From the NCBI GenBank assembly GCA_964571945.1, contig CAZNFE010000001.1:1-38982 (forward strand): a DNA stretch of 38,982 nt, read 5' to 3'. The notes below the pieces were generated by a model that ran no database searches, was not told where the DNA came from, and was given only the letters and a program-made list of their open reading frames with translations. The DNA is from an uncultured Pseudomonadales bacterium (lineage in GTDB: Bacteria > Pseudomonadota > Gammaproteobacteria > Pseudomonadales > Azotimanducaceae). Below are positions 1,667-36,118 of the stretch, piece after piece. The position numbers and the translations under genes were made by a program. How positions within the stretch are numbered: position 1 is the first letter of the stretch; every line of letters starts with the position of its first letter.

Positions 1667-2286
1667 CCACCATACCCCATGAACCTACGGGCGATGTATC
1701 CGATGCACTTTGGGTTGACGTCCGATAGGATCCAGTTCTTGCCGTGCTCCATGCACTGCTCCGCTATGTGGCCATACCCGCAGCAGAAGTCAAGGACAGG
1801 CCCTTGGGCTTTTTCGCATATGAACCGCTCTGCCTGCAAGGTGGTCTTCTTGTGGACGTTCCTGGACGCTCCCCCATACAGCCCATAGAATGCCCACCCG
1901 CCATGAACCGGCATGTAGACATCAACCACCGCATCGGGACTCATCTGGCGAATCATGGACTTGCCCATCAGCACATAGGCGGGACATCCAGCCCGCCGCA
2001 CAATCGCGCGGACGTTTCCCAGATACTGCCGGTACAGCTTCGACGGCACCTCCACCCCGGCCTTGGCCATGAACTTCACGAACCCGTGCCGCCACGCCGG
2101 CTCACAATAGATCACGCCCGCGCCCCCAAACCTGCGATCCCATCCCACCATGACGTCATGAGCGAATGCCAGGTTTCCATCAGCCGCATATTCATCGATG
2201 GGCTCACAGTCAACGTCGCAGCCCCTGCCATTTACCGCTGAATGGTATGGTCTAGCCACAATATGCCATCCTAGCTTGTCCTTCAA
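1663..2286 (-). CDS. SAM-dependent methyltransferase-like protein, permuted (motif IV-like before motif I), atypical catalytic motif
   Basis: C-terminal VLDFCCGYGH...WILSDVNP looks like the SAM-binding motif I loop. N-terminal VIYCEPAW sits where beta-class amino-MTases carry (D/N/S)PP(Y/F/W). The start is uncertain. Track GTG 2355 overlaps the upstream gene by 73 nt, TTG 2286 gives a TTGA overlap, and GTG 2259 follows AGGATGG. Confidence 0.55.
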   Translation of the reverse strand: MKDKLGWHIVARPYHSAVNGRGCDVDCEPIDEYAADGNLAFAHDVMVGWDRRFGGAGVIYCEPAWRHGFVKFMAKAGVEVPSKLYRQYLGNVRAIVRRAGCPAYVLMGKSMIRQMSPDAVVDVYMPVHGGWAFYGLYGGASRNVHKKTTLQAERFICEKAQGPVLDFCCGYGHIAEQCMEHGKNWILSDVNPKCIGYIARRFMGYGG

Positions 2287-3086
2287 TCGTCGAAAGCAAA
2301 ACACTGTTGTCCTTCTGGCGACTGCTTTCCGTGACCGTCGTGTTTGAGCCACCACTCGAACATCTCATCTGGCGTCTCCCAGTCAGTGAATGGCTTTCCC
2401 CTGGCGATTCGGTCATCCCACAACAGCTTCATATATCGTCTCCACTGCATTGCAATACGTGGGTATCTTCTCGCCTCTTCCTCGCGCTGTTCGGTTGACG
2501 CCGAAGGACACATAAGACAACCGATACGCTTGCGTCCCTCATCATATAACTTGCAGTATAGCATATCATATTCGTGGATAAATTCCCACACGTCTCCTTC
2601 TGTCCAGTCTATGATGGGATGGAGGTATTTTCGGTTCTGCCCTTTGCGACACACCTCAAAGACCTTGCGGTTTTTTCGCTTGGTAGACTCCTCCCACCTG
2701 ACTCCTGTTACTATTAACCTGCCGGCCCCTCCGCGCTCCTTTAGTAGCTTACAACACCACCGTGCCCAGCGCATTGGCGGGAACCCATTGGACTTTTCGA
2801 GCATCATACTGTAGATGGTTTTTTCAGGGCGTTCGAAAATGACATCCGGATGGTCTCTCTTGATAAACCATACAAGTTCTGGTGGGTCTATTCCAGTGAC
2901 GTTGTAGTGTGCGTCATACTTTACACCAGCTATGTCAGCAAGCGCCTTAATGCAGCATGAATCTTTCCCGCCGCTGAAGGCAATGTAGAACCCTTTGCCT
3001 TCTGTCAGTTCCTCATATTGCCGAAAGCGGTCGATGGCCTGCTGCACCTTATCAACCTTGCCGAATAGCGTCTGTTCAATCAGCAT
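2283..3086 (-). CDS. PAPS-reductase-family PP-loop ATP pyrophosphatase (DndC/IbrA-like)
   Basis: FYIAFSGGKDSCC carries the SGGKDS PP-loop, followed by GVRWEESTKR and a C-terminal RIGCLMCP cysteine pair. ATG at 3086. Confidence 0.8.
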   Translation of the reverse strand: MLIEQTLFGKVDKVQQAIDRFRQYEELTEGKGFYIAFSGGKDSCCIKALADIAGVKYDAHYNVTGIDPPELVWFIKRDHPDVIFERPEKTIYSMMLEKSNGFPPMRWARWCCKLLKERGGAGRLIVTGVRWEESTKRKNRKVFEVCRKGQNRKYLHPIIDWTEGDVWEFIHEYDMLYCKLYDEGRKRIGCLMCPSASTEQREEEARRYPRIAMQWRRYMKLLWDDRIARGKPFTDWETPDEMFEWWLKHDGHGKQSPEGQQCFAFDD

Positions 3087-7463: not shown

Positions 7464-7491
7464 ATTATATACCGGGTTTATTGTGTGTCAA
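7464..7491 (-). promoter_or_regulatory. consensus sigma70 promoter (TTGACA-16-TATAAT)
   Basis: Minus strand reads TTGACA (7491-7486), a 16-nt spacer, then TATAAT (7469-7464), followed by RBS AAAGGAG and ATG 7436. It shares a 17-nt identical core AATAAACCCGGTATATA (7466-7482) with the promoter at 10901-10929. It overlaps the last codons of the HNH gene. Confidence 0.65.
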
Positions 7492-10858: not shown

Positions 10859-10900
10859 GTTTTTCTCCTTTGCAAAAGTGGCTGTATTGTTCATACCCTA

Positions 10901-10929
10901 AATATATACCGGGTTTATTTAATTGTCAA
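10901..10929 (-). promoter_or_regulatory. consensus-like sigma70 promoter (TTGACA-17-TATATT) with A/T-rich upstream region
   Basis: Minus strand reads TTGACA (10929-10924), a 17-nt spacer, then TATATT (10906-10901). It shares the 17-nt core AATAAACCCGGTATATA (10903-10919) with 7466-7482. AATTTTTCAATAAAATA lies upstream of the -35 and looks UP-element-like. Confidence 0.65.
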
Positions 10930-10975: not shown

Positions 10976-11000
10976 GGCTACCAGAGTCCGTCTGGTGGCC
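10976..11000 (-). terminator. hairpin at the end of the late operon (terminator or operator; weak)
   Basis: Plus strand reads ggctaccaga-gtccg-tctggtggcc, a 10-bp stem. On the minus-strand RNA it has one C/A mismatch and no clean U tract, and is followed by an A/T-rich stretch. It lies between the late-operon stop (11039) and the promoter at 10929. Confidence 0.3.
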
Positions 11001-11038: not shown

Positions 11039-11752
11039 TTACGGTTTCTCGACAAGGAGGTAGATGATCTGCTCGTTCTCCACCACCCGCCGCACATGGG
11101 TTCCAATGACAGTCAGGCCAGCTGCCGTTACGGCATTGACCAGGCAGTCAGGGGTGAAATAGTGGAGGTGGTCTGCGTTCCCGAGGTCCTCGTCATCCGG
11201 AATCACTATGTATAGATGGCCGCCAGGCAGCACAAGGGACGCCATCTTGGTCAGGGCCGCATATGGATCAGCCATATGCTCCAGCACATGCAACCCCATG
11301 ACTAGTTTGAACTGCAAGTCAGTGGAATAATGTTCAAATGAGCCCGTCAGGATCTGAACGCAATATGTCTGGCGCATATACTCGGCCGCCCATCTGCTGG
11401 GCTCAACGGCGAAGTAGCGCATCTTGAGCCTAAGCATCCATGGAATGAGCCTCCCGGTACCGGCCCCAACCTCGATGCAATCACCGCCCTCGGTCGGGCT
11501 CCAGCCAATCGCCATCCATGCATCGAGCGACTCCATAATATATCCAAGATTCTGCGGGATACCATTATCATCGAATATTCCAAGGCTACGATAATACTCA
11601 AGGTCGGGCTCAGGATTGGTATATTTCCTGTGGTGGCTGCATATCTGTTTCTTATGCTTCAGACCGCATTGCCCGCAGATCTCAATTTCGCAGCCACAGG
11701 GAAGTTCCTTGAATGGCACCCATTGACATGAACAAATCATCACCTCCCCCAT
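11039..11752 (-). CDS. class I SAM-dependent methyltransferase with N-terminal Cys-rich zinc-ribbon-like segment
   Basis: CIEVGAGTGRL is motif I. YFAVEPS is the acidic motif II loop. LVMGLHVLEHMADP and LVLPGGHLYI resemble Methyltransf_11/23. The N-terminus CSCQW..CGCEIEICGQCG..CSHH is Cys-rich. Start is ATG 11752 (or 11740), overlapping the upstream stop. Confidence 0.8.
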   Translation of the reverse strand: MGEVMICSCQWVPFKELPCGCEIEICGQCGLKHKKQICSHHRKYTNPEPDLEYYRSLGIFDDNGIPQNLGYIMESLDAWMAIGWSPTEGGDCIEVGAGTGRLIPWMLRLKMRYFAVEPSRWAAEYMRQTYCVQILTGSFEHYSTDLQFKLVMGLHVLEHMADPYAALTKMASLVLPGGHLYIVIPDDEDLGNADHLHYFTPDCLVNAVTAAGLTVIGTHVRRVVENEQIIYLLVEKP

Positions 11753-14121
11753 CTCACACTCTCCCCTATCGTGTGCCATTTCGTTGTTCCTATTGCGATG
11801 TTCTCCTGCCTCCTGAGTGGGTACCATTGGTCATCCTTTCTGTCTTCGTGCTCGATGTGGTAGACGAGATCAGGCAACCGCTTCACCTTCTCGCATACTA
11901 CCTTCGCTCGGTCAAACAGCTCCCCATCTTCCCGCCCATAGCCATACATCCGCTCATCGTATCCACGAAGGGCATCCCAGTCATCTCGGTGGAGCGCCAT
12001 GGTCCCGACGCTCCTGCTTGGATGCTTGCCAGGCCCCAGGCGCTCTGGGCTGCTGGTGAGCATATAGTATGGGGCTTGTCCCTGTCCACGCACTACCAGA
12101 GGCAGCTTTTTCCAGAAGCCGGCGGTCAGCAGGCAGTCAATGTCAGTCTTTACCACCACCTCGCACTTGTCCTTGATGGCCTGGCGAATCCCGATGTTGC
12201 TCATGCGGCTCGGGCTGTAGATGCTCTGCCGGCCCACCACAACCTGTTTCACCATTGGGCCAATCTCCTTGGGGATGTCGCTCACCAGATATACCGTCAC
12301 CCCATGCTGCTCGAACTGCTCCACGTTCCAGGCCATGAACTCATAGAGGCGTTTCATGGGTAGCGCCACATGCGCAACCACCAGCCCGACCGCCATGCTT
12401 TTTTGGGGCTCCGGTGGACGCTGAGGAACTTCGGAGAGCTCACCCAGCTTAGGGCTTACCCTACCCTTCCAGTTGCGCTTGTAGGCCCCATGAGGCAGGT
12501 GAATCACATCGAACTCAGGGACTGGAAGACTCTTCACCTTCTCGGCCGGCCATGTCTTCATCCCAAACACCATATCGGCATATTCTGCCGTATTGTACTT
12601 CTCGTCATACCACCGCTCCCCAAGGCGGCCGATGCTCTTCGCCGCGGGATGCCAGAGCTGGAAATACCCATAGGGGAAGTGCTCAACGTCATTCCCCAAC
12701 CTGTCCGTCTTCCGCGCCTTGGTCTTGTTCGCATGCTTCCAGTATAGGTCATGCCATGTCATGCCCGCATCAAGGCCATCAAGGAATGGCGTGAGGTTCT
12801 CTTCCAATGGTCCCCATCTCTTGGTGTAGTAGAGCGCTCCTGGATTTAGCACATAGCCATTGATGCTCTCCATGAACCCATCAGGCAGGATGATGTCGGA
12901 GTCCAGGATGAGCACCCACTGGTTCTTGGGCAGCGTCCGCAGGCCGTCATTCATGCCCTTGGCCTTGTTGAATGGGGCTCCCCCCTCATGGATCCGATCT
13001 GAGATTATCACCTTCGCGCCATGCTTGCGCGCGATTTCCTGCGTTGCCTTGTCCTTGCTGGTAGTCACGACCGTAAAGCTATCCACCTCCTTGACGTTGC
13101 GTGCCAAGGTGATATCCAGATAGTCCGAATAGTTGACGCATACCGTGATTGCATTGACCTTCTTCTTATAGATGCTGGCCTCGGTGTTGCACTGCACCCG
13201 CGTCGTATTGTCACCATCGTCCGGCAGATACCATTCATAGTTCTTGGTATTGCGCTGGTACTCACCCTCATCGTAGGAGGCAGGGTCAAATGCCTGGAAT
13301 GTTCCACGTAGAACTTTCGGGCTCCCCACCTCCTTGAGCTTCTCGAGTAGCGCTGGGCTGATAATATCCTGGCTGGAATGCGCTTGCTTGCGCGGCACCG
13401 GCAGGCAGGCAGAGCAAAGCTCGCACCACTGGAGCTGGTCACCGAAATCCTCTGGCTTGCGGCGCCACCATCCCTCAACGATTGGCCATCCCCCGGGACC
13501 ATCAAATAGCATATCAAGCGCGCCAGCGACCTCACAAAAGAAGGCACCCTTTGGTGTTATGCTGGAACTCCATAAGTTCTGTATCCAGCATTCATCTCGG
13601 TATTTCACCCATTTCTCATCAGGTATCCCAAGCTCCTTCCTGGTGATGAGAAGCGCCTGGTGGAGGCCGGTATTGGTGTGGTCATTGATGCATTGGTAGC
13701 CGAACACGTCCTGGATGAGCTCATAGTGCTGAGCATAGCGTTTCCCAAGGCTTGTCCACAGTCCACGGCGATTTGTGTCCACCCGGTTGAGATTCTTGTT
13801 GCGGTGCTGGCAGAAGTCCTTGATCGGCTCAGCCACATCCCCGCGCAGCGGAACAGCAGGGATATGCTGCTGATAGATGTTGATGAGCTGCTCGAACTTG
13901 GGATGAATTGTAGGCTCACCACCCATCACCCCCACCATGCCTTTGTACCCATTCATCGACTTCACGGCCTGCTCAAAAGCCATCTCTTCCATGAAGTATG
14001 GTTTCTTGTGGTGGCCACAGAAACGCGTGCAATTCGCGCAACTATGCTGACATGCATTGGTGATATCGATCTGGATGATCTTCTGGTTTGCAGGTGACTT
14101 CATGTCTCGCTTGGCCTCCAT
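11740..14121 (-). CDS. triple-domain enzyme: radical SAM (CX3CX2C) + GT-A glycosyltransferase + second GT-A glycosyltransferase
   Basis: Residues 17-75, IQIDITNACQHSCANCTRFC...GVMGGEPTIHP, form a radical-SAM core with C24/C28/C31, and a further WCELCSAC lies at 232-239. Residues ~322-545, AITVCVNYSDY...WVLILDSDIILP, form a GT-A fold with a DxD motif. Residues ~575-760, GLVVAHVALP...VVVKTDIDCLL...YGYGREDGEL, form a second GT-A-like domain. An alternative ATG at 14103 makes an ATGA overlap with the sulfotransferase stop. Confidence 0.8.
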   Translation of the reverse strand: MEAKRDMKSPANQKIIQIDITNACQHSCANCTRFCGHHKKPYFMEEMAFEQAVKSMNGYKGMVGVMGGEPTIHPKFEQLINIYQQHIPAVPLRGDVAEPIKDFCQHRNKNLNRVDTNRRGLWTSLGKRYAQHYELIQDVFGYQCINDHTNTGLHQALLITRKELGIPDEKWVKYRDECWIQNLWSSSITPKGAFFCEVAGALDMLFDGPGGWPIVEGWWRRKPEDFGDQLQWCELCSACLPVPRKQAHSSQDIISPALLEKLKEVGSPKVLRGTFQAFDPASYDEGEYQRNTKNYEWYLPDDGDNTTRVQCNTEASIYKKKVNAITVCVNYSDYLDITLARNVKEVDSFTVVTTSKDKATQEIARKHGAKVIISDRIHEGGAPFNKAKGMNDGLRTLPKNQWVLILDSDIILPDGFMESINGYVLNPGALYYTKRWGPLEENLTPFLDGLDAGMTWHDLYWKHANKTKARKTDRLGNDVEHFPYGYFQLWHPAAKSIGRLGERWYDEKYNTAEYADMVFGMKTWPAEKVKSLPVPEFDVIHLPHGAYKRNWKGRVSPKLGELSEVPQRPPEPQKSMAVGLVVAHVALPMKRLYEFMAWNVEQFEQHGVTVYLVSDIPKEIGPMVKQVVVGRQSIYSPSRMSNIGIRQAIKDKCEVVVKTDIDCLLTAGFWKKLPLVVRGQGQAPYYMLTSSPERLGPGKHPSRSVGTMALHRDDWDALRGYDERMYGYGREDGELFDRAKVVCEKVKRLPDLVYHIEHEDRKDDQWYPLRRQENIAIGTTKWHTIGESVRWGR

Positions 14122-14735
14122 TCCTCAAATAACTCCAACTCTGGCTCTAAGCCAAGGAACTCCGAAAGCATGCTGAGCGATTCCGGGATCTTCTCATATT
14201 GAACAATGCGCGCATTATCGCTCCATTCGGTCCGCCGATACATCTTATCATATAGATCCCGCATCCGACTGATATCTTCATTATAGAATCCGAAGTGCTT
14301 ACGTATCGACCGCTGATTTGCCATCTCATCACGCTGCATTATCACCAGCCGGTAGTCATCAAAAAGATTTGATTCATCCACATATTGGGACAAAAGTCCC
14401 TCATCAAATTCATGGTCTGGGCATTTGCTCACGAGGTTTGGCTTGCTTTGGTCTAGACCGCCTATGGCCAATCCATCAATTACCCCGGCGCCACGATGGA
14501 TGAAGCTGTGGGTCGCGTATCGCCCGATTTCGATGAGTTGATCGCCCAAGGCATGACCAGTGAGCGGCACTGAATCATAGCCATCACGATGCCATTTGGA
14601 GAACCATCTGGTTTCCAGGAGCTTGTGAAGGCCCTGCTCCTCAGCCCCGCCAGTGCATTGCTCATGTAATCGAAGTTGATTCAGCATAAACGTGGTTCCA
14701 CTTCTATGAAACCCCGTTATGTATATCAAGCGCAT
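14100..14735 (-). CDS. PAPS-dependent sulfotransferase family protein
   Basis: IYITGFHRSGTTFMLNQL is the 5'-phosphosulfate-binding loop (xRSGTT). VIMQRDEMANQRSIRKH is 3'-phosphate-binding RDxxxxxxS-like. GGGAGGAAACCA precedes ATG 14735. Confidence 0.75.
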   Translation of the reverse strand: MRLIYITGFHRSGTTFMLNQLRLHEQCTGGAEEQGLHKLLETRWFSKWHRDGYDSVPLTGHALGDQLIEIGRYATHSFIHRGAGVIDGLAIGGLDQSKPNLVSKCPDHEFDEGLLSQYVDESNLFDDYRLVIMQRDEMANQRSIRKHFGFYNEDISRMRDLYDKMYRRTEWSDNARIVQYEKIPESLSMLSEFLGLEPELELFEEWRPSET

Positions 14736-14756
14736 TGGTTTCCTCCCGTGCCGCTT

Positions 14757-17979: not shown

Positions 17980-20900
17980 TTACGCTCCACTGGAGAAGGT
18001 CAAACTCTTCCCCTTCCTTTGCTGGGCCAGAATTTCTTCGAGAGTCACATGCATCTTCGTCTGCACGGCAAGCATCTTGTCTTCGGTAGTATTCTGCAGG
18101 AATGAAGCGAATCCACGGCCAAATTGCCCGAAGCCTCCAACTGCGATTTCCTTGGTCCTTTCTTCAGATGCCTGCAGGTCCTGCGCAAGCTTCTCCTGCT
18201 GATTGCGTACAGCCTGGTCGATGGACAGCATTGCGTCTTTCTCTGCGTTCGCAGCATCGGCCGCATCGCGAGCTGCCATCAGATCTGCTTCATCTCCTGA
18301 TGTGATGGCTGCCCGGAATAGATCTGTCGCCCTTCCAAATACCTCTTGAGCCTGTTGCTTCATCCTGTCGCGTGCTTCCTTCAGCAATGCCAGGTATTGC
18401 TTCGGGTTTTCCTCAGCGGCATCGGCCATCTTCTTTCCGATTTCACGCGCCCTCATCTCCTCCCTTGCTTCTCGCAACCCACGCGCCCATCCCCTGGCTT
18501 CCTCCAGGGCCTTCTGGCTATTTTCCTTTGATGCCTTCAGTGCCTTGTCACGGATGGCCTGCTCTTTCCTCTGCTGTTCCTGCATACTGCGTTCTTGGCT
18601 GGATAGCTGAGCTTCCCTTGCACTATTGGCGCGCAATAGCATCGCATAGGATTCTTCTTCGGCCCTGACTCTCAGGCCAGCAATACGTCTGGCTTCAGCA
18701 AAGTGTTCTTCTGCTGCCTGGATGTCTTCCTCATCTATCTTCTGACCGGCGTTCTTTCGCGCCTTCAGCTCAGCCAGCACGCGCCCGGATGCTTCCGCCT
18801 CATTTATCGCTACCTTTGCCTCCAGGCCAGACCGTTCAAGTTTGGCCTGTGCGTCAGCAATAGCCTTCTGTGGGTCAAGCTCAAGAGTTGCCTCGAAGAT
18901 CGTCTTTTCTTCTCTGACAGTACCGCGTTCCTCAAATTTCCGGCGTTGCTCAATTATGTCACGGAGCGTCTTATCTGCGAGCTTTGTAATCTCATCTTCC
19001 AGATCTCTCTGGACCTGAAGGCGCTTTTTGGCAATTTCACGCTCGACTTCAATCTTGCCATTTCCTGCGCTATTCAGTGCATCGACCTCGCCATCCAATA
19101 TCTTTTTAATGGCAATTGCAGTGAAGCGAGCCTGAAAGATGCGCTCCCGCTGTATCTTCTCGCTTTGGGATGAGCGGCTATCAACCCGCTGGGCACCCGC
19201 CTGCTTGGCTGCCTTCAATTGCTCCTTCAATGCAGTTGTGATTTCTTCCTGGGTCTTGCCCTGTGCCCGAAGCTCAGCGATATATTCTTTCTGCTCATCT
19301 ATCGCGCCCCGTATGGTAGCGGGCTTTTTGCCGATAAGTTCCTCCAGCTCGATATTCGCAAGCGCTGTCGATCTTTCCAACGCATCGGTTTCATCAACCA
19401 CTTTCTCAATATCAAGGGCCAAAGAAGTCGCATATCCCGCCGCCGCAAGTGCAGCCACCGTAGCCAATGCCGCGCCTACGGTAGCAATCGCAGGAGCTGC
19501 TGCTATTGCGGCTGCTTTGATGGAGGCGAATGCCCCAACGGCTGCGGTCTGTAGTGATGTGAATGCGGCTGAGGCCGCCGCTGGAGCGCCCTTCAGGGTT
19601 GTGAGCATGCTGGAAAAGGCTGTCTTCGATGCCGTGCTGATTGAGGTCAAAGCTCCAGCAATTGACGTCTTGAGCGCCGCCATGCCAGCAGTTGCTGCGC
19701 CTTTGATTGCCTCAAAGGCCGCCGTCGGACCAGGTATGGCCTTCAGCATAGTCCAAAGATTTTTTGTGTTTGCGGCAATTGCTGACCCAACGCTCCTGAA
19801 ACCAGATGCCAAGCTCTGCAGCACCGGACCCATCTTCGTCGCCAGATTGGCATCCATTACGAAGCGGAATGCCTTGTTGAGGGTGATTATGCTGGATATT
19901 GCACCAGCCACCGCCTTCAGGCCTGCGCCAGTCGCCAGAAGCGCGACGCCAAGCTTCCCAACCCCAATGACCAGCCCATGATTCTCTGCTATCCAGACAG
20001 TGATGGCCGGCACAATTTGTTTTATCCAGACGATAAGCGCCCTGACCGGCTCCTTTATAGCAGCACCAATCTCTACCATAGCGCTCTTAATCTCTTGTAC
20101 CATCTTTAGGTACTGACGATTTATTGTATTTACCATCTTGCTTGATGCGGCCTCTGTTGCGCCGGCCGCTTTCTGCATGGCATCAAGATCACCCTGGAAT
20201 TGATCCATGGCATTCAGGGCCGGCAATAGGCCAGTCACCGCTCCAATGTTCGGGAATAGCTTCGCTACTGTGTCGCTAGGCAGCCCGGCAATCTCCTGGA
20301 AGACGCCACCAAGACCCTTCGCCTTCAAAGCCGCTGCGTCCAGCTTTAATCCCATCTGTTCGGCAACATCAGCCGCCTCTTTAGTCGGCTTCAGGAAGCT
20401 CGAAATAATGGCTTTGATGCTAGTTATAGCCTCAGATGTCTGCACGCCGTTACGCGTGAGGAGGGCCAGCATTGCTCCAAGCTCTTCGAATGACACGCCG
20501 GCATTATTGGCTAAATTGGCCACTTGGCCAATAACCGGCGCCAGCTGAGCGAACGTTGTCTTGCCTCGACGCTGGATCGTGAAGAATACATCCGATACTG
20601 CCGCCGCATCTTCGGCTGACTTGCCATAGCTGTTCAGCACAGTAGTTAGCGCATCTGCTGCGGTCTTAGTATCAGTGAAGCCACCAACGGCAGCCTTGGT
20701 TGCGACGGTCAGGACGTCTATGGCCTGACCGGTAGGCACTGAAGCTGACAGGATATCATAAAGCCCATCAGCCATTATGCTTGTATCAACACCAAACTGA
20801 GTGCTCAGTTCGCGTACCTGCTTGCCGAATTTATCCATTGCTGTCTGGTTGCCATCAATGACAGTCCCAACCTTCGCCATTGATTCTTCAAAGCTGGCAA

Positions 20901-21093
20901 ACTCTTTTGAAGCTCCGGCCAGCGGCGCCAGGATCCCCACCCCAGCGGCGGCAAATGACGTTCCGATTGAGCTCAGCTTCCGGCCAAACGCCTGCATCTT
21001 ATCCTGGGCTGTCTTCAGGTCTTCGCTGAATTTATTCAGGTCGATCCGAAGATCCACCAGCCCTTCACCAGCTGGTACGCTTCCAGCACTCAT
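17980..21093 (-). CDS. tail tape measure protein (1037 aa)
   Basis: Supported by its size, Ala/Gly-rich hydrophobic central segments, long charged helical regions, the TP901-type core (..TSIMADGLYDILSASVP..), and its position after the G/GT chaperone pair. Confidence 0.9.
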   Translation of the reverse strand: MSAGSVPAGEGLVDLRIDLNKFSEDLKTAQDKMQAFGRKLSSIGTSFAAAGVGILAPLAGASKEFASFEESMAKVGTVIDGNQTAMDKFGKQVRELSTQFGVDTSIMADGLYDILSASVPTGQAIDVLTVATKAAVGGFTDTKTAADALTTVLNSYGKSAEDAAAVSDVFFTIQRRGKTTFAQLAPVIGQVANLANNAGVSFEELGAMLALLTRNGVQTSEAITSIKAIISSFLKPTKEAADVAEQMGLKLDAAALKAKGLGGVFQEIAGLPSDTVAKLFPNIGAVTGLLPALNAMDQFQGDLDAMQKAAGATEAASSKMVNTINRQYLKMVQEIKSAMVEIGAAIKEPVRALIVWIKQIVPAITVWIAENHGLVIGVGKLGVALLATGAGLKAVAGAISSIITLNKAFRFVMDANLATKMGPVLQSLASGFRSVGSAIAANTKNLWTMLKAIPGPTAAFEAIKGAATAGMAALKTSIAGALTSISTASKTAFSSMLTTLKGAPAAASAAFTSLQTAAVGAFASIKAAAIAAAPAIATVGAALATVAALAAAGYATSLALDIEKVVDETDALERSTALANIELEELIGKKPATIRGAIDEQKEYIAELRAQGKTQEEITTALKEQLKAAKQAGAQRVDSRSSQSEKIQRERIFQARFTAIAIKKILDGEVDALNSAGNGKIEVEREIAKKRLQVQRDLEDEITKLADKTLRDIIEQRRKFEERGTVREEKTIFEATLELDPQKAIADAQAKLERSGLEAKVAINEAEASGRVLAELKARKNAGQKIDEEDIQAAEEHFAEARRIAGLRVRAEEESYAMLLRANSAREAQLSSQERSMQEQQRKEQAIRDKALKASKENSQKALEEARGWARGLREAREEMRAREIGKKMADAAEENPKQYLALLKEARDRMKQQAQEVFGRATDLFRAAITSGDEADLMAARDAADAANAEKDAMLSIDQAVRNQQEKLAQDLQASEERTKEIAVGGFGQFGRGFASFLQNTTEDKMLAVQTKMHVTLEEILAQQRKGKSLTFSSGA

Positions 21094-24051: not shown

Positions 24052-24591
24052 TTACAACGGACATACAGTATTATGAATAACCCGTCTCGTCACGTCAAAC
24101 CATACAGAAAATCTAGCCTCTTTTGCACATCGGCACCAATCCAGGTCAACCGGCTCAGCTTCCGGGAATGGAACGGCCTGCAATACCTTCCTGGACATCA
24201 GCAAGCATCCGCTACCAACAGCATCACACTCATATAACCCGTCCCCAGGCTGAGGATGAAGTTCTCCGTTTTCATCCAGACGAAAGGCAAGCCTAATGAT
24301 GCAGCCATGCTGGACTGTGTTGATATTGGCGCTACAAATATCTTTCCCGTTATCAATCATTCCCAAAAGGTCATGGCAGGGACTCATGTCATCATCTATC
24401 TTCAAACACCATTCCGCGTCGCTTTCCAGGAAACCATCTCGCATGATCTTATGAGCAAGTGTGCTTGGTCGCACGTATGGGATGGGGAAGAATTTCACAT
24501 CATGCCCATATTTGTCAAGAGTATGCGTCCATTGCCAGAGTTCATATTGTATTTTGCCGAGCGTAGGAAGCGCCACCATTACTCTACTCAT
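24052..24591 (-). CDS. small GT-A (family-2-like) glycosyltransferase
   Basis: VMVALPTLG.. is the Rossmann-like start. CLKIDDDM is the DxD motif. DAVGSGCLLMSRKVL is the typical GT2 acceptor-loop region. GGAGAT lies 7 nt before the ATG. Confidence 0.6.
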   Translation of the reverse strand: MSRVMVALPTLGKIQYELWQWTHTLDKYGHDVKFFPIPYVRPSTLAHKIMRDGFLESDAEWCLKIDDDMSPCHDLLGMIDNGKDICSANINTVQHGCIIRLAFRLDENGELHPQPGDGLYECDAVGSGCLLMSRKVLQAVPFPEAEPVDLDWCRCAKEARFSVWFDVTRRVIHNTVCPL

Positions 24592-24616: not shown

Positions 24617-25288
24617 CTAGCTGGTCAATACCGTAAGACCACGAGTGGATGTCCCACCAGAAGCGAATGATGTAGTGATGGTTGCAGAAATCCCGCTATG
24701 CTGATAAACCTTATTCGCTATGGCATCAACCGACCATAAATCAGTGCCGTCAAAGGCCAGCCCAGAACAGGCAGTAGCAGGGCTTGCAAATGTGCTGTTA
24801 ATCGTATTTGTCAGGCCGCTATGAACATAGATTGTTGAAGGATCACAATGAATCAAATCTGTGCTATCATAAGTCAGGCCAGATTGATTTAACCCGGATG
24901 CAGCAAAACTTGTTAGGATGGTTGAGCTTATTCCACTATGCTGATATATCTTACCAGCTAATTGATCAATTGACCATAAATCGCCCGATGCGACTGTAAT
25001 ACCACTTGGAGATCCTGCTGGGGTGGAAAAACTACTGGAAATAGTAGATGTATATCCACTATGAACAAAGACCTTGTCTAAACTATCGCCGACACTTATA
25101 AGATTTCCTGATGTGTTGGCGAGACCGCGTGGGAATGTATCCGGCGAAGCAAAAGTTGTCCTGACGGTTGACGATCCGCCAACGTAAAAAACGATTTCAT
25201 TAGCCGACGCACCTGCCCTGACCAAATCTCCGATCTGAGGCGCAGCACCAGCCTCGCCACCGAACAACGTATATGGAAAAGTCAGCAT
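24617..25288 (-). CDS. five-repeat (beta-propeller-like) protein next to the fibre gene
   Basis: Five units of about 41 aa share K(V/I)(Y/F)xHSGx(S/T)xTIxxSFxxPxxxxxGLxxxxxDLxSxD. Confidence 0.6.
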   Translation of the reverse strand: MLTFPYTLFGGEAGAAPQIGDLVRAGASANEIVFYVGGSSTVRTTFASPDTFPRGLANTSGNLISVGDSLDKVFVHSGYTSTISSSFSTPAGSPSGITVASGDLWSIDQLAGKIYQHSGISSTILTSFAASGLNQSGLTYDSTDLIHCDPSTIYVHSGLTNTINSTFASPATACSGLAFDGTDLWSVDAIANKVYQHSGISATITTSFASGGTSTRGLTVLTS

Positions 25289-25299
25289 CGGTGTCTCCC

Positions 25300-28122
25300 C
25301 TACTTGCTATCATTCACCATCTGGCAGTGGATGTTCGTGCCATCGCTTACCCCGGTGAGAACGTCCACCGCCAGGCCAGTTGTAGTGAGGACCGGAGCGG
25401 TGCCGCCTGGGAACTTGAACACAGCGTTGTAGGCGAGAGTGCGGCTGCCAGTTGCGTCCTGTTTGATAATCCAGATGTATGTTGCTCCGTTCTTGAGGTT
25501 TGTGGGCGCGCCAAGCGTCCGGTTACCCGCTAGTGTAACGGTGTGGACGTTGCCGTTGTCGCAATCCGTAGCAATTGTTGCGGCGTCAGTAAGTGTATCT
25601 GTATCGCTCCATGCCTGACCTCCAACCTGCACATTTCCAGTCGTCGTCAGTGTGGACAATGTTGCGGTGCCGCCAGTGATTGCTACAGAAGCCGCTGATT
25701 GAGTTGCAATCGAACCAAGGCCGAGGTTTGACCGTGATGTTCCGGCATTCGCCACATCAGAAAGATTGTTGTCCGCCAATAAAGCCCCGGTCGGGAAATC
25801 ATGCCATTGGCTGCCGATTCTGAATTGCATATTGGGAGAATTGTATCTTATGATCCCGTTCGTCGTATCTGATGTGCTGCCCAGCTTGATAGCACCGCCT
25901 GATGTGATGTAAGCGAGAGCTGTCTCTGAGCTATCTATCCAATCAGTCAGATGGCCAGATTGACTGACTGCCCCCTTAATGGTGAAGGGTACATCAGTAT
26001 CAGTTTGGCACGTTACCCGGAAGAGATGACCGGTGTTATTGTATGTCAAACCAACCGCACCGCCGAATGAACCACCATCATTGAATTGAATTTGATTACT
26101 GCTGCCTCCAGGCGCTCCACCGGCTGGCGTTGCCCAGGTACCATCACCGCGCCAGAACGTAGAACTGCTCGCACCTGTTCCACTATTGAGATTCGTGACA
26201 GGGAGATTGCCAGTGACGCCAGTAGTAAGAGGAAGACCTGTGCAGCTTGTAAGCACACCCGAAGCGGGAGTGCCAAGCGCAGGCGTGACAAGGGTCGGTG
26301 AGTTGGCGAACACAAGCCCACCGCTGCCTGTCTCGTCACTTATGATACCGGCCAGCTGCGCCGAGGTCGTCGCTGCAAATTGACTCAGAGCATTTGAGGT
26401 CAGTGCATCACCAATTCCAGCTCCCAAGGTTGCCCTGGCGGTTGCGGCATCCGCATCATCCAAGAGAGTTCTGGCAAAGGAAGAGAGAGCTGTCACTGCA
26501 TAGGTATCCAGACCAGTAGTATAGATCATCTTATCCGCGGCGGTTACCAATGCGGCAATACTGGTGAGGCCGGCATCAATTGCCTGCTTACCACTATCAA
26601 GAGTATCCAACGCATTAGATACGAACGCGCCAGCCACCCCGGAGTCATTATCAACCTGAGAAGCATCATAGTCTGAAGCCGCAGCAGCCACCGCTCCAGT
26701 CCTACCAAATACTGAAGCAACTCCTCCACTGACCGTCGCCCAAGAGAGATTCCCTGCCCCATCATTCTGGAGGTATTGACTTCCTGTACTGTTGCCTGTT
26801 GGGAAGGTGTAGGCATTATGGAATTTGATCCCTGAAATGTTCACTTCCAAGACAGGAGTGGAATCATTTTGCAATACTTCGAGAATGTTATTTGTTTGAA
26901 TTGATCCGCCCTTGATCTTGGCCACCACATGATCCAATGAAGGATCTGGTAGAATCTCAATAGCTGCATCATTTGGTATATGGAGTCTCTGAGAACTTCC
27001 TACGGCTATCGAAAGCTGATTGGCAGCAGGAGAATATAATCCCGTATTCGCTGCGTTATTCAAACCATATGCAACGTTACTGGCAGAACCAGCAGAACGG
27101 GTCCTTACCTGGCCACCATTTCCAATCTCAAAGAGATTCACCCCTGTACTGTTATCTATCCGGAGAATATTGGCTGTCTGACCCAATACTCCCTGAATCC
27201 TGAGTTGATATTCATCTGCATTTCCATCAATGAATACCCTGGCATAGGATTCTGGACTTGTATTCCCAACCCCAATATGACCATCTACAACGAGCTGGTC
27301 CAATATACGGGCATCAGAACAATTGAAATTGCCCCCTCCGGTATCAGTGTTATTTCGGATCGTGAGAGTGTCATTTGATACATTCCGAAGAATGACAGGA
27401 TTGGCGGCCTCACTGATTCTGAGAGGAAGAACTGCCGTAGGGTTGCTTGCATCTAAGCGGAGGCTCTCCACCCCACCAGCAATCAGACTTAATTCATCCG
27501 CTGCATTATGGCCAATGCCTGTATCCTGGTCGTTTCGACTTGGAATGAGTGAAGGCACCGTATTCGAAGCTGCAATGCTGCGAACCATCCATGACGTAGA
27601 CAGGTCAGACTTGATGCCATCTGCATCAATGAAACCAACATCGGCTCCATTGATGGCAATTTTGACGGTATTATCTACTGATTCATAGAATCCGCTATTG
27701 CCATCCCCAAATGCTAAACTGGGAGATGCAGCGGTTCCGCCTGCGGCGATTGTGACCTGTGATACGCCTACAACGCTACCGCCTGTAATCGCAACGCTAT
27801 CGGCATCCTGAACCGCAATCGTTCCAAGCCCGAGGTTTGTCCGGCTGATGGCTGCGTCATCAAACGTGTTGTCGCATGTGCGACTATCAGATAGACGAGA
27901 GTCATTGCCCTGGCAGACCGTGCCAGCAGATGACCCAAAATCCTTGTTGAAAGCAGTATTTTTGGAGAATGCCAGCTCATAGTAAGTATCGAATAGATCT
28001 TTCATCTGCTGAACTGTCAGCCCGACGCTGGTTGGACCTGGGAGCTGTGATGCCTCAATCTTGTCAGTAAGCTGCGCCGCAGCTGCTGCTGGTAATCCTG
28101 AAATCTTAATGTTGGACATCAT
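25300..28122 (-). CDS. long fibre protein (940 aa)
   Basis: N-terminal [10 protein letters not shown]...LTDKIE, then [10 protein letters not shown]. The motif R(T/S)NLGLG(T/S)[11 protein letters not shown] recurs at both ends. Long Gly/Ser/Thr/Asn beta-rich repeats are typical of phage fibres. ATG ATG at 28122/28119 follows AGGAGAAA. Confidence 0.75.
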
Positions 28123-29774: not shown

Positions 29775-29815
29775 CCAAACGAAAACGGGGGGAAGGGGAG
29801 ATTCCCCCTCCCCCC
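29775..29815 (-). terminator. GC-rich intrinsic terminator/attenuator immediately after the major capsid gene
   Basis: Minus strand reads GGGGGGAGGGGG-AATCT-CCCCTTCCCCCC, with 11 of 12 positions paired, followed by GTTTTCGTTT. It lies in the 72-nt gap between the capsid stop (29839) and the connector start. Confidence 0.6.
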
Positions 29816-29838
29816 GGTGTTGCTTACTGTGCTCCGGT

Positions 29839-30993
29839 CTAACTGCCGTTCACGACCCCTGTGGCGATCCTGAACGCATCGGTCAGCACGGGCTGGCCAT
29901 CCCACTTCTCCACAATGGTGATTTCCTTGGAGAAGTTGCGCGGGCTGTCACCGCTCATCATGTACATCAGTCGGTTGATGTAGACCACATACCGGCTGAA
30001 GTCACCGGCAAGGATCTTGCCGCTGGTGACATATGCGCTTTCCTCCATGTTGGGGAGCTTGTTGAGCAGGAACTGCGCTGCCCGAACATTCTCAGCCAGC
30101 TCCGCGATGATGCTGAAGAGGGTCTGGCCCTCCATGAGCATCAGACTCCGCGCACGGTATCGCTGCGGGATTTCCTGCGCGAAGTTGAGGATGCGCGCGA
30201 TGGTCGGCGCACCACCAAAGTCCACCGTGGTGATGCCGGCGCTGGCGTCCATCAGCCCCAGCGGACGGCTTGACCCGGAACCTGGACCGACAATCGGCTC
30301 GCTCTCGTGGTCGATTGCAAACGCATCGGCCGCGAGGTCCATCAGCTCCTGGACGATGTCATCGGGGCTGTCCTCAATGAGGTCAATCTTGATGAACGTG
30401 CGCATATCGTAGTAGCGCATCGTCCACGTGAGCTCGCCATAGGTCGGTTCCTGCTCGGTCACATCGTCCGAGCTGGTGGTGCTGCTCGACTTGGCCGCCG
30501 TCCCCTTGTTGCTGCTCGGGTAGGCAGTAACCTCACGCTTGGTGACGCTGTCCCGGCTGGTCCGGCGCTTGGTAATGAGCGGCCATACGATGGCTGGCTC
30601 ATCAGCCTTCTTCTCAACGCCGAGCTGGAAGTCCACCGGAACGGCATAACCGCCCTTGCTTGGCGTTGCCGGACCGAGTGCCTGGGTAACAACCCCATCT
30701 TCGTCCAGGTCCGGATCCGGTGTGCCGCCAAGAATGGCACAACGGAAGAACTCGCCCTGCTGCTCGAGGGACATGCTCTCGTGCTTGCTCCGGCTCTTCT
30801 TGGCCTGGAGCTGCTTGGCGATGATCTCCTGATTCTGTCGCTGTTGCTTGGCATTCTCAATGGCGACAGAAAGATCCTCGCCAAAGAGTGCCTTCAGCTC
30901 TTCGCCTACGACCGTCTTAGTCATGCTGGCGAGCTTCTCAACCGTCTGCTCATTGATCGCTACAGACGCCTTGTCCTTGTTTTCCTCAGCCAT
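29839..30993 (-). CDS. major capsid protein, HK97 fold family
   Basis: An N-terminal helical delta-like region (..EELKALFGEDLSVAIENAKQQRQNQEIIAKQLQ..) is followed by SKGGYAVPVDFQ, the GGYLVP-type motif. It lies directly after the prohead protease. AGGAGA lies 6 nt before the ATG. Confidence 0.85.
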   Translation of the reverse strand: MAEENKDKASVAINEQTVEKLASMTKTVVGEELKALFGEDLSVAIENAKQQRQNQEIIAKQLQAKKSRSKHESMSLEQQGEFFRCAILGGTPDPDLDEDGVVTQALGPATPSKGGYAVPVDFQLGVEKKADEPAIVWPLITKRRTSRDSVTKREVTAYPSSNKGTAAKSSSTTSSDDVTEQEPTYGELTWTMRYYDMRTFIKIDLIEDSPDDIVQELMDLAADAFAIDHESEPIVGPGSGSSRPLGLMDASAGITTVDFGGAPTIARILNFAQEIPQRYRARSLMLMEGQTLFSIIAELAENVRAAQFLLNKLPNMEESAYVTSGKILAGDFSRYVVYINRLMYMMSGDSPRNFSKEITIVEKWDGQPVLTDAFRIATGVVNGS

Positions 30994-34404: not shown

Positions 34405-34433
34405 ATAAAAATAGGGGCCTGGGAGGTGGCCCC
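34405..34433 (-). terminator. rho-independent terminator closing the upstream accessory block
   Basis: Minus strand reads GGGGCC-ACCTCCCA-GGCCCC followed by TATTTTTAT. It lies 37 nt after the stop of the 53-aa ORF and about 60 nt before the portal start. Confidence 0.65.
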
Positions 34434-34469
34434 AGACCCCCTGCAGCAAGGAGTTCCCCTGATGCTGCA

Positions 34470-35486: not shown

Positions 35487-35661
35487 CGTCATCCCCATGC
35501 TTAACATATCGTGCTGCCCTCAAGTCAACACTATCAACCGTCCATCTATCAATGACCCTGAGTGCTTCTCCCTCTGTTTGAAACGCCCCGAGGCTTCCCA
35601 TCACAGACCATTCATCATCACCATAGCGCGCTTCAATCATCCAGATGCCTCGTGTTGTCAT
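35479..35661 (-). CDS. hypothetical small acidic protein (60 aa; 53 aa if started at 35640)
   Basis: ATG 35661 follows GAGGGGCCAA. An alternative ATG at 35640 lies in a GATGATTGAAGC junction identical to the one at 35486. Confidence 0.45.
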   Translation of the reverse strand: MTTRGIWMIEARYGDDEWSVMGSLGAFQTEGEALRVIDRWTVDSVDLRAARYVKHGDDDD

Positions 35662-36118
35662 TTGGCCCCTCTGCCTCAAGATATTCAGCCTCCCTGCTGA
35701 TGACGTATATTCTAGTCCCTGGCCCGACCCAGAGCTGCTTGCCTACCTGGCCGCTGAATGGATGGTCACATGGTATGCCGCATGTCTGTGTCACCACATA
35801 TACATTCGGCGCCACCTCTCCCCCGCAACCGCCCAGCAACATCACCAATATCAGGGCCGCCAGCAGAACCGCAATCCAGCATATCCGCTTGTCAATGTCT
35901 CTCACTCCTTCACCTCCCTCTTCTTGTTCCTTCTCTTGACATCCGGATCGTCTATTCCATGCTGTCACTAGCGCCTTGCGGCTGAAGTATCCTGCGCCTG
36001 CCGCATCCTCACGCAAATAGCATCCCTTGGTCGGGCAGCGACTCACCGTGTACATCATACCCGGACCCCTGACCTTCATTTTGGCACCGCAGAATGGGCA
36101 TGGCCTTAGCTCGGTCAT
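35633..36118 (-). CDS. Lar-like (restriction alleviation family) zinc ribbon continued in frame into a signal-peptide/lipobox-like segment and a small extracytoplasmic domain
   Basis: MTELRPCPFCGAKMKV...YTVSRCPTKGCYL...SRKALVTAWNRR matches the Lar-family pattern (LKPCPFCG ... C..C ... A...WNRR). Then come an acidic linker, KRICWIAVLLAALILVMLLGGCGGE and about 70 more aa. ATGA overlap with the upstream gene. Confidence 0.6.
   Translation of the reverse strand: MTELRPCPFCGAKMKVRGPGMMYTVSRCPTKGCYLREDAAGAGYFSRKALVTAWNRRSGCQEKEQEEGGEGVRDIDKRICWIAVLLAALILVMLLGGCGGEVAPNVYVVTQTCGIPCDHPFSGQVGKQLWVGPGTRIYVISREAEYLEAEGPNDNTRHLDD

Follow-up and report, generated by a model that had tools for sequence, protein, structure and literature searches.

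Three enzyme genes that close the late structural operon of an uncultured tailed phage raise the question of what they build and on which acceptor. The genes lie on the minus strand at positions 11039-14735 of the window, which is the whole stretch of 38,982 nucleotides that was analysed (contig CAZNFE010000001.1, from an uncultured Pseudomonadales bacterium), and are present there as three translationally coupled ORFs encoding a sulfotransferase, a large radical-SAM/glycosyltransferase (GT) protein and a methyltransferase. A sequence-only reading had proposed that they assemble and decorate a glycan on a virion protein or on DNA.

The tight coupling of the three genes to the late operon was confirmed. 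The upstream gene ends with a TAG at 14759-14757, and the sulfotransferase ATG stands at 14735. Read from the sequence, the ribosome-binding site GGGAGG (14742..14747, minus strand) lies within the 21-nt gap, 6 nt 5' of this ATG; the motif had been recognised correctly, but the 21 nt assigned to it is the distance from the upstream stop to the start codon. The sulfotransferase stop and the start of the large gene form an ATGA overlap, provided that the large gene begins at Met7 (14103). From this coupled start the large protein has 787 aa, the same length as called for P0001, rather than 793 aa; its description as a fusion of a radical-SAM domain and two GT-A domains stands. At the next junction, the large gene ends and the methyltransferase gene (233 aa) begins within a TGATG, the start lying at 11740. 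Both junction types were verified by direct reading.

Within the cassette, promoter-like matches are no more frequent than expected by chance, and scanning of its minus strand found no terminator-like site, which agrees with the claim that neither a promoter nor a terminator interrupts it. A hairpin with a 10-bp stem and no strong T-run (10976..11000, minus strand), 39 nt past the methyltransferase stop, is a possible end of the late transcript. A sigma-70-like promoter (TTGACA-17-TATATT, 11/12; 10901..10929, minus strand) precedes the next gene (ATG at 10894). In the scan of positions 1-37999, only one other minus-strand match reached 11/12 or more, and the 18-38 kb part had none. This strongest promoter-like site of that region, located 3' of the cassette, marks where the late operon gives way to the recombination/replication genes. 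The designation of the upstream 321-, 470- and 275-aa genes as tail genes is based solely on position after the tape measure gene and on synteny, and searches returned neither a family match nor a PDB match for them. Inside the head-tail module, a small GT-A-like protein of 179 aa with an IDDDM motif is encoded (24052..24591, minus strand). It has no Pfam or PHROG match of its own, and is 23% identical (E 2e-10) to a protein from locus L080 that matches phrog_1574 and, less strongly, a glycosyltransferase-annotated PHROG; judged from this similarity, it is tentatively considered a possible extra member of the glycosylation function. The window also encodes a PAPS-reductase-like protein, a second radical-SAM protein and a Lar-like protein.

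The enzyme assignments for the two smaller proteins were upheld. The sulfotransferase (211 aa, 14100..14735, minus strand) is of the PAPS-dependent type, has GFHRSGTT as its 5'-PSB motif and RD-x6-S as its 3'-PB motif, and matches Pfam Sulfotransfer_3 (PF13469) with 34 bits (cut-off 27). RSGTT and RD-x6-S are kept in relatives from loci L001 and L009, and both motifs align in weak PDB sequence matches to tyrosylprotein sulfotransferases. The methyltransferase (11039..11740, minus strand) is a class I SAM enzyme with an N-terminal Cys-rich, Zn-ribbon-like motif (CxC...CxxC...CxxH) and a Methyltransf_23 match of 55 bits (cut-off 27). Six cassette-linked relatives retain both this Cys motif and a GxGxG motif.

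The large protein begins with the radical-SAM domain (residues 7 to ~300; 13222..14103, minus strand), which contains CX3CX2C (C24, C28, C31) and GGEPT. Its Pfam Radical_SAM match over residues 20-87 reaches 25.5 bits, just below the cut-off of 29.5; the assignment nevertheless holds, with both motifs conserved in alignments of 32-38 homologs and a model (pLDDT 94) whose best PDB folds are SpeY (E 6e-9, TM ~0.49) and BtrN (E 1.5e-5). Four more invariant cysteines (C178, C196, C233 and C236) fit a predicted auxiliary Fe-S cluster of the twitch type, and the auxiliary-cluster ligands of BtrN have a spacing similar to that of these extra cysteines. SpeY (spectinomycin pathway) and BtrN (butirosin pathway) share CX3CX2C with the window domain and oxidise a secondary alcohol on a sugar or cyclitol. 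However, the two are stand-alone enzymes of antibiotic pathways, whereas the domain of the window type is fused to GTs and occurs in phages and glycan loci. Identity is 11-17%, and because the fold match is moderate (TM ~0.5), a SpeY/BtrN-like reaction predicted from the model is a lead and not a result.

These two structures act on small aminocyclitol or glycoside substrates, and the radical-SAM family occurs in many genomic contexts, which would suit an auxiliary metabolic module directed at a soluble or lipid small molecule (the nucleotide-sugar pool, a sulfated glycolipid or a metabolite) with no macromolecular target. We consider such a target improbable: two GT domains are present, yet no gene to make or export a small-molecule scaffold accompanies them, nucleotide-sugar synthesis genes were not found among the scanned window ORFs, and the cassette consistently lies inside virion modules.

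The remainder of the large protein consists of two GT-A domains. The first (residues ~320-560; 12442..13164, minus strand) has a DxD motif (D407-S-D409), conserved NPG and GYFQL motifs and weak Pfam GT2 matches, and accompanies the radical-SAM domain in 23 of 82 loci, 81 of them viral. The second (residues ~576-793; 11740..12396, minus strand) is beta-1,4-galactosyltransferase-like with a D-I-D motif; it matches Pfam Glyco_transf_7C (31.9 bits, cut-off 23) and, by Foldseek, B4GalT1 and B4GalT7, and is restricted to the closest relatives. The AlphaFold model of the whole protein (pLDDT 88) shows a tandem GT-A fold like that of K4CP, PmHS2, LH3 and B4GalT, in support of the two proposed GT-A domains. 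Among viral proteins, its fold is matched by multi-GT proteins from giant viruses and from uncultured Caudovirales, and by glycosyltransferases of Gordonia phages. The top tandem folds, the chondroitin polymerase K4CP of E. coli K4, the Pasteurella heparosan synthase PmHS2 and LH3/ColGalT1 (E 6e-16 to 1e-9), each have two active sites and are either soluble or peripheral, and LH3 and ColGalT1 use a protein acceptor, collagen hydroxylysine. At 10-15% identity and a whole-chain TM of ~0.2, these model-based matches indicate a two-GT-A architecture rather than orthology, and polymerase activity is not implied.

The radical-SAM family of the cassette is uncharacterised and comprises 257 clusters at 50% identity. 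Its members are found in at least 168 bacterial species and in at least 134 IMG/VR contigs, in the latter mostly beside head or tail genes; the homologs are thus not confined to host polysaccharide loci. A search of phage and metagenome data showed that the trio of methyltransferase, radical-SAM/GT protein and sulfotransferase recurs in four phage lineages of differing morphotype, always in or beside virion genes, and the cassette is therefore a functional unit. Besides the window, the trio occurs in a siphovirus (L001, large protein 54% identical), in a BPP-1-like podovirus between the portal and capsid genes (L161) and in a 102-kb element (L163), where it follows the tail genes in a 'moron' position with an integrase ~9 kb downstream. 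In podovirus relatives, the cassette lies between portal/capsid genes or between tail/internal-core genes, and in L164 virion genes flank it on both sides. Five of the six sulfotransferase relatives with informative flanks adjoin a radical-SAM/GT gene, and a GT-A-like domain is fused to the radical-SAM domain or lies at most three genes away in 46 of 75 viral loci, whose annotated neighbours are mostly head, packaging and tail proteins. Elsewhere the radical-SAM domain is fused to GT2, DUF5672, Glyco_transf_7C or Methyltransf_24 domains. The codon overlaps, the strong promoter lying only past the cassette, the flanks in L164 and the viral neighbours were counted for late expression together with virion genes. 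Against a virion target, we counted the remoter radical-SAM relatives, which stand alone between scaffold/capsid genes or between RNA ligase/Thg1-like genes, and the lack of homology to GenBank phages: the family was not found in GenBank phage isolates, and tblastn against 50,697 GenBank phage records, including phages with proven virion glycosylation, gave no match.

Bacterial homologs of the radical-SAM domain lie mainly in polysaccharide or glycan loci, so the cassette chemistry is not specific to protein glycans. Their neighbours include GT2 proteins, sugar epimerases/dehydratases, nucleotidyltransferases, UDP-glucose dehydrogenase and FkbM methyltransferases; in one locus, a Wzx flippase is encoded together with Alg13/14-like and GT2 proteins. 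A host envelope glycan (capsule, LPS O-unit or exopolysaccharide) could instead be the substrate: the enzymes would work from the cytoplasmic side of the membrane on a polymer that is lipid-linked or ABC-transporter-dependent, and host machinery would then export it. The polysaccharide loci, the one with Wzx among them, agree with such a target, as do the integrase and post-tail position in L163 and the best GT fold matches, K4CP and PmHS2, which are capsule polymerases without transmembrane segments and with lipid acceptors; all these points also count against a virion acceptor. Sulfotransferases of bacteria are known chiefly for their part in making surface or secreted glycolipids. Nevertheless, the cassette is coupled to late structural genes without a promoter of its own above chance, a conversion gene would be unusual at the podovirus positions, the scanned window ORFs include no integrase, and the cassette comes without an exporter, flippase or membrane GT. 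We regard an envelope glycan as the main rival target, but as less likely than a virion protein. If it were the target, superinfecting phages may be excluded, progeny may be kept off debris, or the serotype may be converted in temperate relatives.

Two bacterial loci are compatible with a protein acceptor. In L120 a family member stands beside fliC and fliD among sugar-activation and GT2 genes, and in L149 another lies near a Maf glycosyltransferase and flagellin. These are flagellin glycosylation islands, that is, cytoplasmic protein-glycosylation systems, and just 2 of the 77 bacterial loci have flagellin within 8 kb. As in the system proposed for the virion, such islands (Maf-type and GT2-type) modify a self-assembling extracellular protein in the cytoplasm without a flippase; in contrast, their radical-SAM proteins lack the phage-type GT-A fusions, and no sulfotransferase was seen there.

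The claimed absence of transmembrane segments and Gtr-type partners was borne out: no 19-residue window in the three proteins exceeds a Kyte-Doolittle value of 1.4, and family searches of the cassette gave no flippase, exporter, membrane GT or Gtr match. The earlier step from this absence to a virion protein or DNA is unsafe, because lipid-carried polysaccharides are also built at the cytoplasmic face by soluble or peripheral GTs; a virion protein is still the best reading, and DNA gains no support. Hypermodification of phage DNA, in which a glycan on a modified base would be methylated and sulfated against host nucleases, is very unlikely. In its favour, the enzymes are soluble proteins of the cytoplasm, DNA-glycosylating GT-A enzymes have been described from phages (Pyle et al. 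2024, as cited in PMC12619734), and the three additional proteins noted above are other modification-type products of the window. However, hydroxymethylase, base-exchange and kinase genes were found neither beside the cassette nor among the scanned ORFs, the cassette lies in the late structural operon away from the replication genes, and the bacterial homologs are in glycan and flagellin loci instead of DNA-modification loci.

Our preferred reading, held tentatively at a probability of roughly 0.45, is that virion proteins are glycosylated in the cytoplasm late in infection, and that their glycan is methylated, sulfated and tailored by the radical-SAM domain. From the gene structure, coupling, folds, motifs, recurrence and contexts, we infer the catalytic steps, their order and the acceptor as follows. 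The cassette would be a horizontally mobile set of soluble, late-expressed enzymes that build and tailor the glycan in the cytoplasm. Sugars from nucleotide-sugar donors would be added by the two GT-A domains; the twitch-type radical-SAM domain would use a 5'-deoxyadenosyl radical to take hydrogen from a sugar carbinol carbon, so that, as for SpeY and BtrN, a keto-sugar or an epimer would result; and the glycan would be O-methylated by the Zn-ribbon methyltransferase and O-sulfated by the sulfotransferase with host PAPS as donor. The acceptor would most likely be at least one virion protein from the same late transcript, with the upstream tail-tip/fibre proteins, the capsid, a 940-aa fibre-like protein and a 223-aa Ser/Thr-rich protein as candidates, and the released particle would carry an anionic, methyl-capped glycan coat. 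A protein acceptor is compatible with the absence of transmembrane segments, flippase and exporter, with the flagellin-island relatives and with the mycobacteriophage precedent.

Chlorovirus PBCV-1 provides one comparison in its A064R protein, a multi-domain enzyme encoded by the virus that works in the cytoplasm, where it assembles the glycan of the major capsid protein and caps it with methyl. A064R has two glycosyltransferase domains and a methyltransferase domain. Unlike the cassette, it has no radical-SAM or sulfation step and belongs to a eukaryotic virus; a profile of the first GT-A region matched the A064R structure 2p6w weakly and not significantly (E 0.11). The GtrA/GtrB/GtrC modules of temperate phages are likewise phage glycan-modification genes placed after tail genes, but Gtr proteins are membrane proteins acting in the periplasm. 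The nearest functional parallel to a methylated virion glycan comes from mycobacteriophages of clusters F and O, such as Che8 and Corndog, whose soluble GTs, grouped with an O-methyltransferase, modify capsid and tail-tube proteins in the cytoplasm (Freeman et al. 2023, as cited in PMC11600133 and PMC12619734). Those cassettes differ in lacking a radical-SAM domain and a sulfotransferase, have no detectable sequence homology to the window and serve actinobacterial hosts, which the window host is not; the virion target is only predicted here. Methylated virion glycans, first taken as new, thus have a precedent (PMC11600133), while the novelty of sulfation and of a radical-SAM step would stand. 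If virion proteins are indeed the acceptor, a virus-encoded glycosylation that includes sulfation and a radical-SAM step would be new, with methylation already known.

The window is part of a tailed-phage genome, and nearly all of its genes lie on the minus strand. The structural region was recognised by PHROG matches to a portal protein (32306-34348, minus strand), a protease/scaffold-like protein, the major head protein (29839-30993, minus strand) and a tape measure protein (17980-21093, minus strand). The cassette (11039-14735, minus strand) comprises genes for a sulfotransferase, a large radical-SAM/GT-A/GT-A fusion protein and a Zn-ribbon methyltransferase, and is separated from the tape measure gene by three ORFs of 275, 470 and 321 aa. 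The genes upstream of the cassette had been called tail genes in the sequence-only reading; Pfam, PHROG and PDB sequence searches returned no match for these three ORFs and did not confirm a tail role. Genes for replication and recombination are located downstream of the cassette, namely, an SbcC-like ATPase, an HNH endonuclease, a RecE/YqaJ-like exonuclease, a primosomal protein and a DnaC-like loader. The same phage was met again in JGI metagenome 3300002231.

Other features were observed around the head genes. A strong G+C-rich terminator-like hairpin (29786-29816, minus strand) stands directly after the major head protein gene, as is customary where the capsid protein is over-expressed. 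A second strong G+C-rich hairpin of this type is found upstream of the portal gene (34413-34441, minus strand). The ORF at 35633-36118 (minus strand) contains a Lar domain for restriction alleviation (Pfam PF14354, 32 bits), and a second, unrelated radical-SAM-like ORF of 287 aa (37912-38775, minus strand; phrog_9298, weak Pfam match) lies immediately upstream of a 527-aa ORF which, judging by its position, probably encodes the large terminase.

The junctions of the cassette were read directly from the sequence. The gene upstream ends with TAG at 14759-14757, followed by GGGAGG at 14747-14742 and the sulfotransferase ATG at 14735. The sulfotransferase stop overlaps the ATG of the large gene as ATGA, so that the large protein likely starts at Met7 (14103) and has 787 aa, the length called independently for P0001, a metagenome protein 99% identical to it. 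The TGA of the large gene overlaps the ATG of the methyltransferase (233 aa) as TGATG, with GGGGGAGG before it. Promoter-like matches within the cassette were no commoner than in shuffled sequence, and no minus-strand terminator-like site was found there. The three genes exist and are coupled, as first described. A hairpin with a 10-bp stem occurs 39 nt past the methyltransferase stop, and a TTGACA-17-TATATT site (11/12; 10901-10929) follows it ahead of the next gene. The only other minus-strand site scoring at least 11/12 in the scanned 38 kb (1-37999) is located deeper in the replication region. From the overlaps, the absence of internal signals, and the hairpin and promoter after the cassette, we infer that the cassette closes the transcription unit of the late structural genes. 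A 12/12 sigma-70 consensus, TTGACA-16-TATAAT, was also observed upstream of the RecE/YqaJ-like exonuclease gene (7464-7491, minus strand); together with the 11/12 site, it suggests that the host uses canonical sigma-70 promoters.

The model of the whole large protein reached pLDDT 88, and a separate model of residues 1-310 reached pLDDT 94. The N-terminal domain carries C24-x3-C28-x2-C31 (CX3CX2C), the motif that holds the SAM-cleaving [4Fe-4S] cluster and that at least 90% of the 32-38 aligned homologs share, and a GGE-type SAM-binding motif, GGEPT, which is invariant among aligned homologs. The window protein scored 25.5 bits against Pfam PF04055, below the gathering cut-off of 29.5, close homologs reached 30.1-30.2 bits, and all NCBIfam radical-SAM matches were sub-threshold. 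The domain model matched radical-SAM structures, whose fold is a partial TIM barrel, with a Foldseek probability of 1.0, the best folds being the twitch radical-SAM dehydrogenases SpeY (E 6e-9) and BtrN (E 1.5e-5), a class that oxidises secondary alcohols of sugar or cyclitol substrates. Four further cysteines (C178, C196, C233 and C236), invariant in the 32-38 homologs, fit a putative auxiliary [4Fe-4S] cluster in a shortened SPASM (twitch) domain. Motifs and predicted fold thus place the domain in the radical-SAM (twitch) class. A RiPP-type peptide maturase role was rejected, as EpeE, SuiB, SkfB and anSME ranked far below SpeY and BtrN; it is also disfavoured by the linkage of all close radical-SAM relatives to glycosyltransferases.

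From residue 320 or so onward, Foldseek matched the model to tandem GT-A enzymes, including K4 chondroitin polymerase, heparosan synthase 2, LH3, ColGalT1 and beta-1,4-galactosyltransferases, and in a viral library to multi-GT proteins of giant viruses and uncultured Caudovirales and to Gordonia phage glycosyltransferases. The first GT-A domain has a nearly invariant DxD (D407-S-D409) and scores below Pfam cut-offs; the second has a D-I-D motif and matches Glyco_transf_7C at 31.9 bits against a cut-off of 23. Two domains with the GT-A fold and DxD features are accordingly predicted.

The sulfotransferase matched Pfam Sulfotransfer_3 at 34 bits (cut-off 27). Its PAPS-binding motifs, GF(H/P)R(S/T)GTT and R(D/E)-x6-S, are kept in three relatives, and its 5'-phosphosulfate-binding loop and 3'-phosphate-binding motif align with those of TPST1/2, which points to a PAPS-dependent member of the Sulfotransfer_3 family. 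Tyrosylprotein sulfotransferases were the only PDB sequence matches, at a weak E of ~0.008, and the acceptor may be either a sugar or a tyrosine. The NCBIfam search returned nothing, and a single-sequence search returned the query alone. The methyltransferase scored 55 bits for Methyltransf_23 and 40 bits for Methyltransf_11 (Pfam), its motif I (GxGxG) is conserved as VGAGTG, and its N-terminal Cys-rich motif is kept in six cassette-linked relatives; by family score and motif, it is clearly predicted to be a class I SAM-dependent enzyme. Overall, the enzymatic assignments made at first sight for the three genes were upheld by Pfam, motifs, models and Foldseek. Among the replication genes, a PAPS-reductase-family protein (2283-3086, minus strand; Pfam PF01507, 77 bits; phrog_424) was also noted, which is probably not a true PAPS reductase because its scores are far under the NCBIfam cut-offs for CysH. 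Even so, a gene of the PAPS-reductase fold accompanies the PAPS-using sulfotransferase in this phage.

The trio was found at three collected loci besides the window, which bears out the view of it as one cassette. A siphovirus with syntenic tail genes (L001, 45.5-kb contig) carries Methyltransf_24, radical-SAM/GT/GT (54% identity), a sulfotransferase relative and Methyltransf_23. A BPP-1-like podovirus (L161) carries methyltransferase, radical-SAM/GT (600 aa) and sulfotransferase genes, a set flanked by the portal gene on one side and the Bbp19/GP7/Bbp16 head genes on the other. A 102-kb element (L163) has DUF5672/radical-SAM/GT, Methyltransf_24 and sulfotransferase genes after tail-like genes, with an integrase ~9 kb downstream. 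In another podovirus (L164), radical-SAM/GT and methyltransferase genes are flanked by a tail gene and by a core gene resembling T7 gp14. Sulfotransferases of this subfamily are very few: a profile search recovered seven proteins, and scans for more relatives added one viral and two metagenome loci; the radical-SAM/GT gene adjoins the sulfotransferase in five of the six subfamily members with informative flanks. This adjacency and the recurrence in unrelated phages define the cassette as a mobile functional unit, which moves between unrelated phages and always lands within or at the edge of virion modules. Nucleotide comparison (blastn) of the window with the loci collected by then gave no match. 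The contig of P0001 and that of a bacterial locus, L147, are both 16,750 bp long; this is taken to be coincidental, given that blastn result and the 43% identity of the L147 match. Spurious opposite-strand or wrong-frame ORFs produced by simple ORF calling (neighbour clusters c6 and c84; L005:591-1487) were left out.

More than 1,200 proteins in a 90%-clustered collection are related to the large protein, and its radical-SAM domain alone matched 257 clusters at 50% identity (E <=1e-30) among 1.84 billion representatives. Radical-SAM relatives are encoded on at least 134 IMG/VR contigs and in at least 168 bacterial species genomes of many phyla. By tblastn, no isolate among the 50,697 GenBank phage records encodes a relative of this family, and blastn/tblastn of the cassette, capsid protein, sulfotransferase and radical-SAM domain against these phages matched only the generic N-terminal radical-SAM motif. 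The domain was found fused to GT2, DUF5672, Glyco_transf_7C and Methyltransf_24 domains. A GT-A-like domain is fused to it or lies within three genes of it in 46 of 75 viral loci, and at 20 loci one particular GT-A-like gene precedes a stand-alone radical-SAM gene. Where neighbours in viral loci could be annotated, most were proteins of the portal, terminase, head-morphogenesis or tail type. Bacterial neighbours are chiefly GT2 enzymes, NAD-dependent sugar epimerases/dehydratases, nucleotidyltransferases, UDP-glucose dehydrogenase and FkbM or class I methyltransferases, with a Wzx flippase at one locus. Two bacterial MAG contigs contain flagellin glycosylation islands: one (L120, 8001-12209) with FkbM, UDP-Glc dehydrogenase, two GT2 enzymes, the radical-SAM protein, nucleotidyltransferase, flagellin and FliD, the other (L149, 7968-15602) with the radical-SAM protein, Maf glycosyltransferase and flagellin.

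Other settings of the family were also observed in viral loci. At six IMG/VR loci (L036, L037, L039-L041 and L026), a stand-alone relative (35% identity) lies between scaffold-like and Phage_capsid_2 major capsid genes, and no GT-A-like gene was found nearby by profile search; this hints that some of the family work directly on the capsid or together with it. At three loci (L028 5916-10303, L022 and L029), the radical-SAM gene follows the portal gene, accompanied by a gene like the first GT-A domain and two unannotated neighbour proteins (clusters c71 and c47); these look like glycosyltransferases by eye, in which case the head module would hold a larger glycan cluster. At five further loci, on IMG/VR contigs of 41-349 kb (L072, L073 and L075-L077), genes for an RNA ligase and a Thg1-like tRNA-His guanylyltransferase flank a more distant relative (33% identity). 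This is an RNA-repair rather than a glycan context, and the wider family may therefore not share a single function.

The shared theme of the cassette enzymes is sugar chemistry. In the proposed mechanism, the GT-A domains would add sugars, the twitch radical-SAM domain would take hydrogen from a sugar carbinol carbon to yield a keto or epimerised residue, and the methyltransferase and sulfotransferase would then cap the glycan. The acceptor may be virion protein, to which we assign a probability of roughly 0.45. This reading is favoured by the apparent coupling of expression to structural genes, by the position of relatives' cassettes between head or tail genes, by the use of the radical-SAM family in cytoplasmic flagellin glycosylation, and by a precedent: passages of PMC11600133 and PMC12619734 describe mycobacteriophage capsids and tail tubes glycosylated by phage-encoded GTs with an O-methyltransferase. 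The former also records that virion glycosylation in phages of actinobacteria weakens the neutralising-antibody response (PMC11600133).

The lack of an encoded membrane or export partner also favours a virion acceptor. No membrane-helix-compatible hydrophobic stretch occurs in any of the three cassette proteins, and none has a GtrA/GtrB-type Pfam or PHROG match, as anticipated from the sequence. Gtr modules combine the GtrA flippase and the bactoprenol glucosyltransferase GtrB with a serotype-specific GT that is an integral membrane protein, whereas the cassette has no TM segment; Gtr-type seroconversion was rejected because the cassette encodes no membrane proteins. The initial argument from absent membrane segments to a cytoplasmic substrate is nevertheless incomplete, since soluble tandem GT-A enzymes can build capsule polymers on lipid acceptors. 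This capacity, the location of most bacterial homologs in polysaccharide loci and the integrase of one cassette-bearing relative all count against a virion acceptor, and modification of a host envelope glycan is a possible, though somewhat unlikely, role. A small-molecule or other role is improbable. Modification of DNA is very improbable; no hydroxymethylase, kinase or transglycosylase supplying a DNA acceptor was found among the larger window ORFs scanned.

Inside the head-tail module, a 179-aa GT-A-like protein with an IDDDM motif is encoded at 24052-24591 (minus strand), near genes for a 223-aa protein with 29% Ser+Thr (24617-25288, minus strand) and a 940-aa protein with weak tail-fibre PHROG matches (25300-28122, minus strand). 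The first could be an extra glycosyltransferase and the other two candidate glycan acceptors.

The PBCV-1 protein A064R is a multi-domain capsid-glycan enzyme. It and the mycobacteriophage cassettes are the closest functional analogues of the window cassette; both lack a radical-SAM and a sulfation step. The mycobacteriophage GTs share no homology with the cassette proteins, and none was matched by tblastn in the 50,697 GenBank phage records; the likeness of the Gordonia phage GTs to the large protein is at fold level only. A full-text literature search found no paper on the radical-SAM/GT fusion family or a phage sulfotransferase cassette, in agreement with the initial remark that no described phage system with this combination was known. 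The novelty claimed for sulfated or methylated virion glycans held in part: methylated ones are already known, according to passages of PMC11600133, and sulfated or radical-SAM-tailored ones would be new.

The radical-SAM/GT-A family is uncharacterised and stands at the core of a predicted virus-encoded glycosylation machinery; its size and the absence of papers in the literature search mark it as an enzyme family of bacterial glycan and flagellin-glycan biosynthesis that is still untouched, and new whatever the target of the cassette. Tentatively, and with considerable doubt, we propose that tailed phages infecting uncultured bacteria cover their virions with a glycan that is sulfated and O-methylated, and in which one sugar is remodelled by the GT-fused radical-SAM family. 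If true, no sulfated glycan would have been known before on any phage virion, and the system would reveal new radical-SAM sugar chemistry at the level of glycan assembly, which bacterial flagellin and polysaccharide pathways would share. Sulfation would give the particles a strong negative charge, which could affect adsorption, adhesion to mucus or matrix, and the way host defences recognise them. If the mobile cassette glycosylates virions in unrelated siphoviruses and podoviruses of environmental bacteria, the strategy would be widespread, beyond actinobacteriophages.
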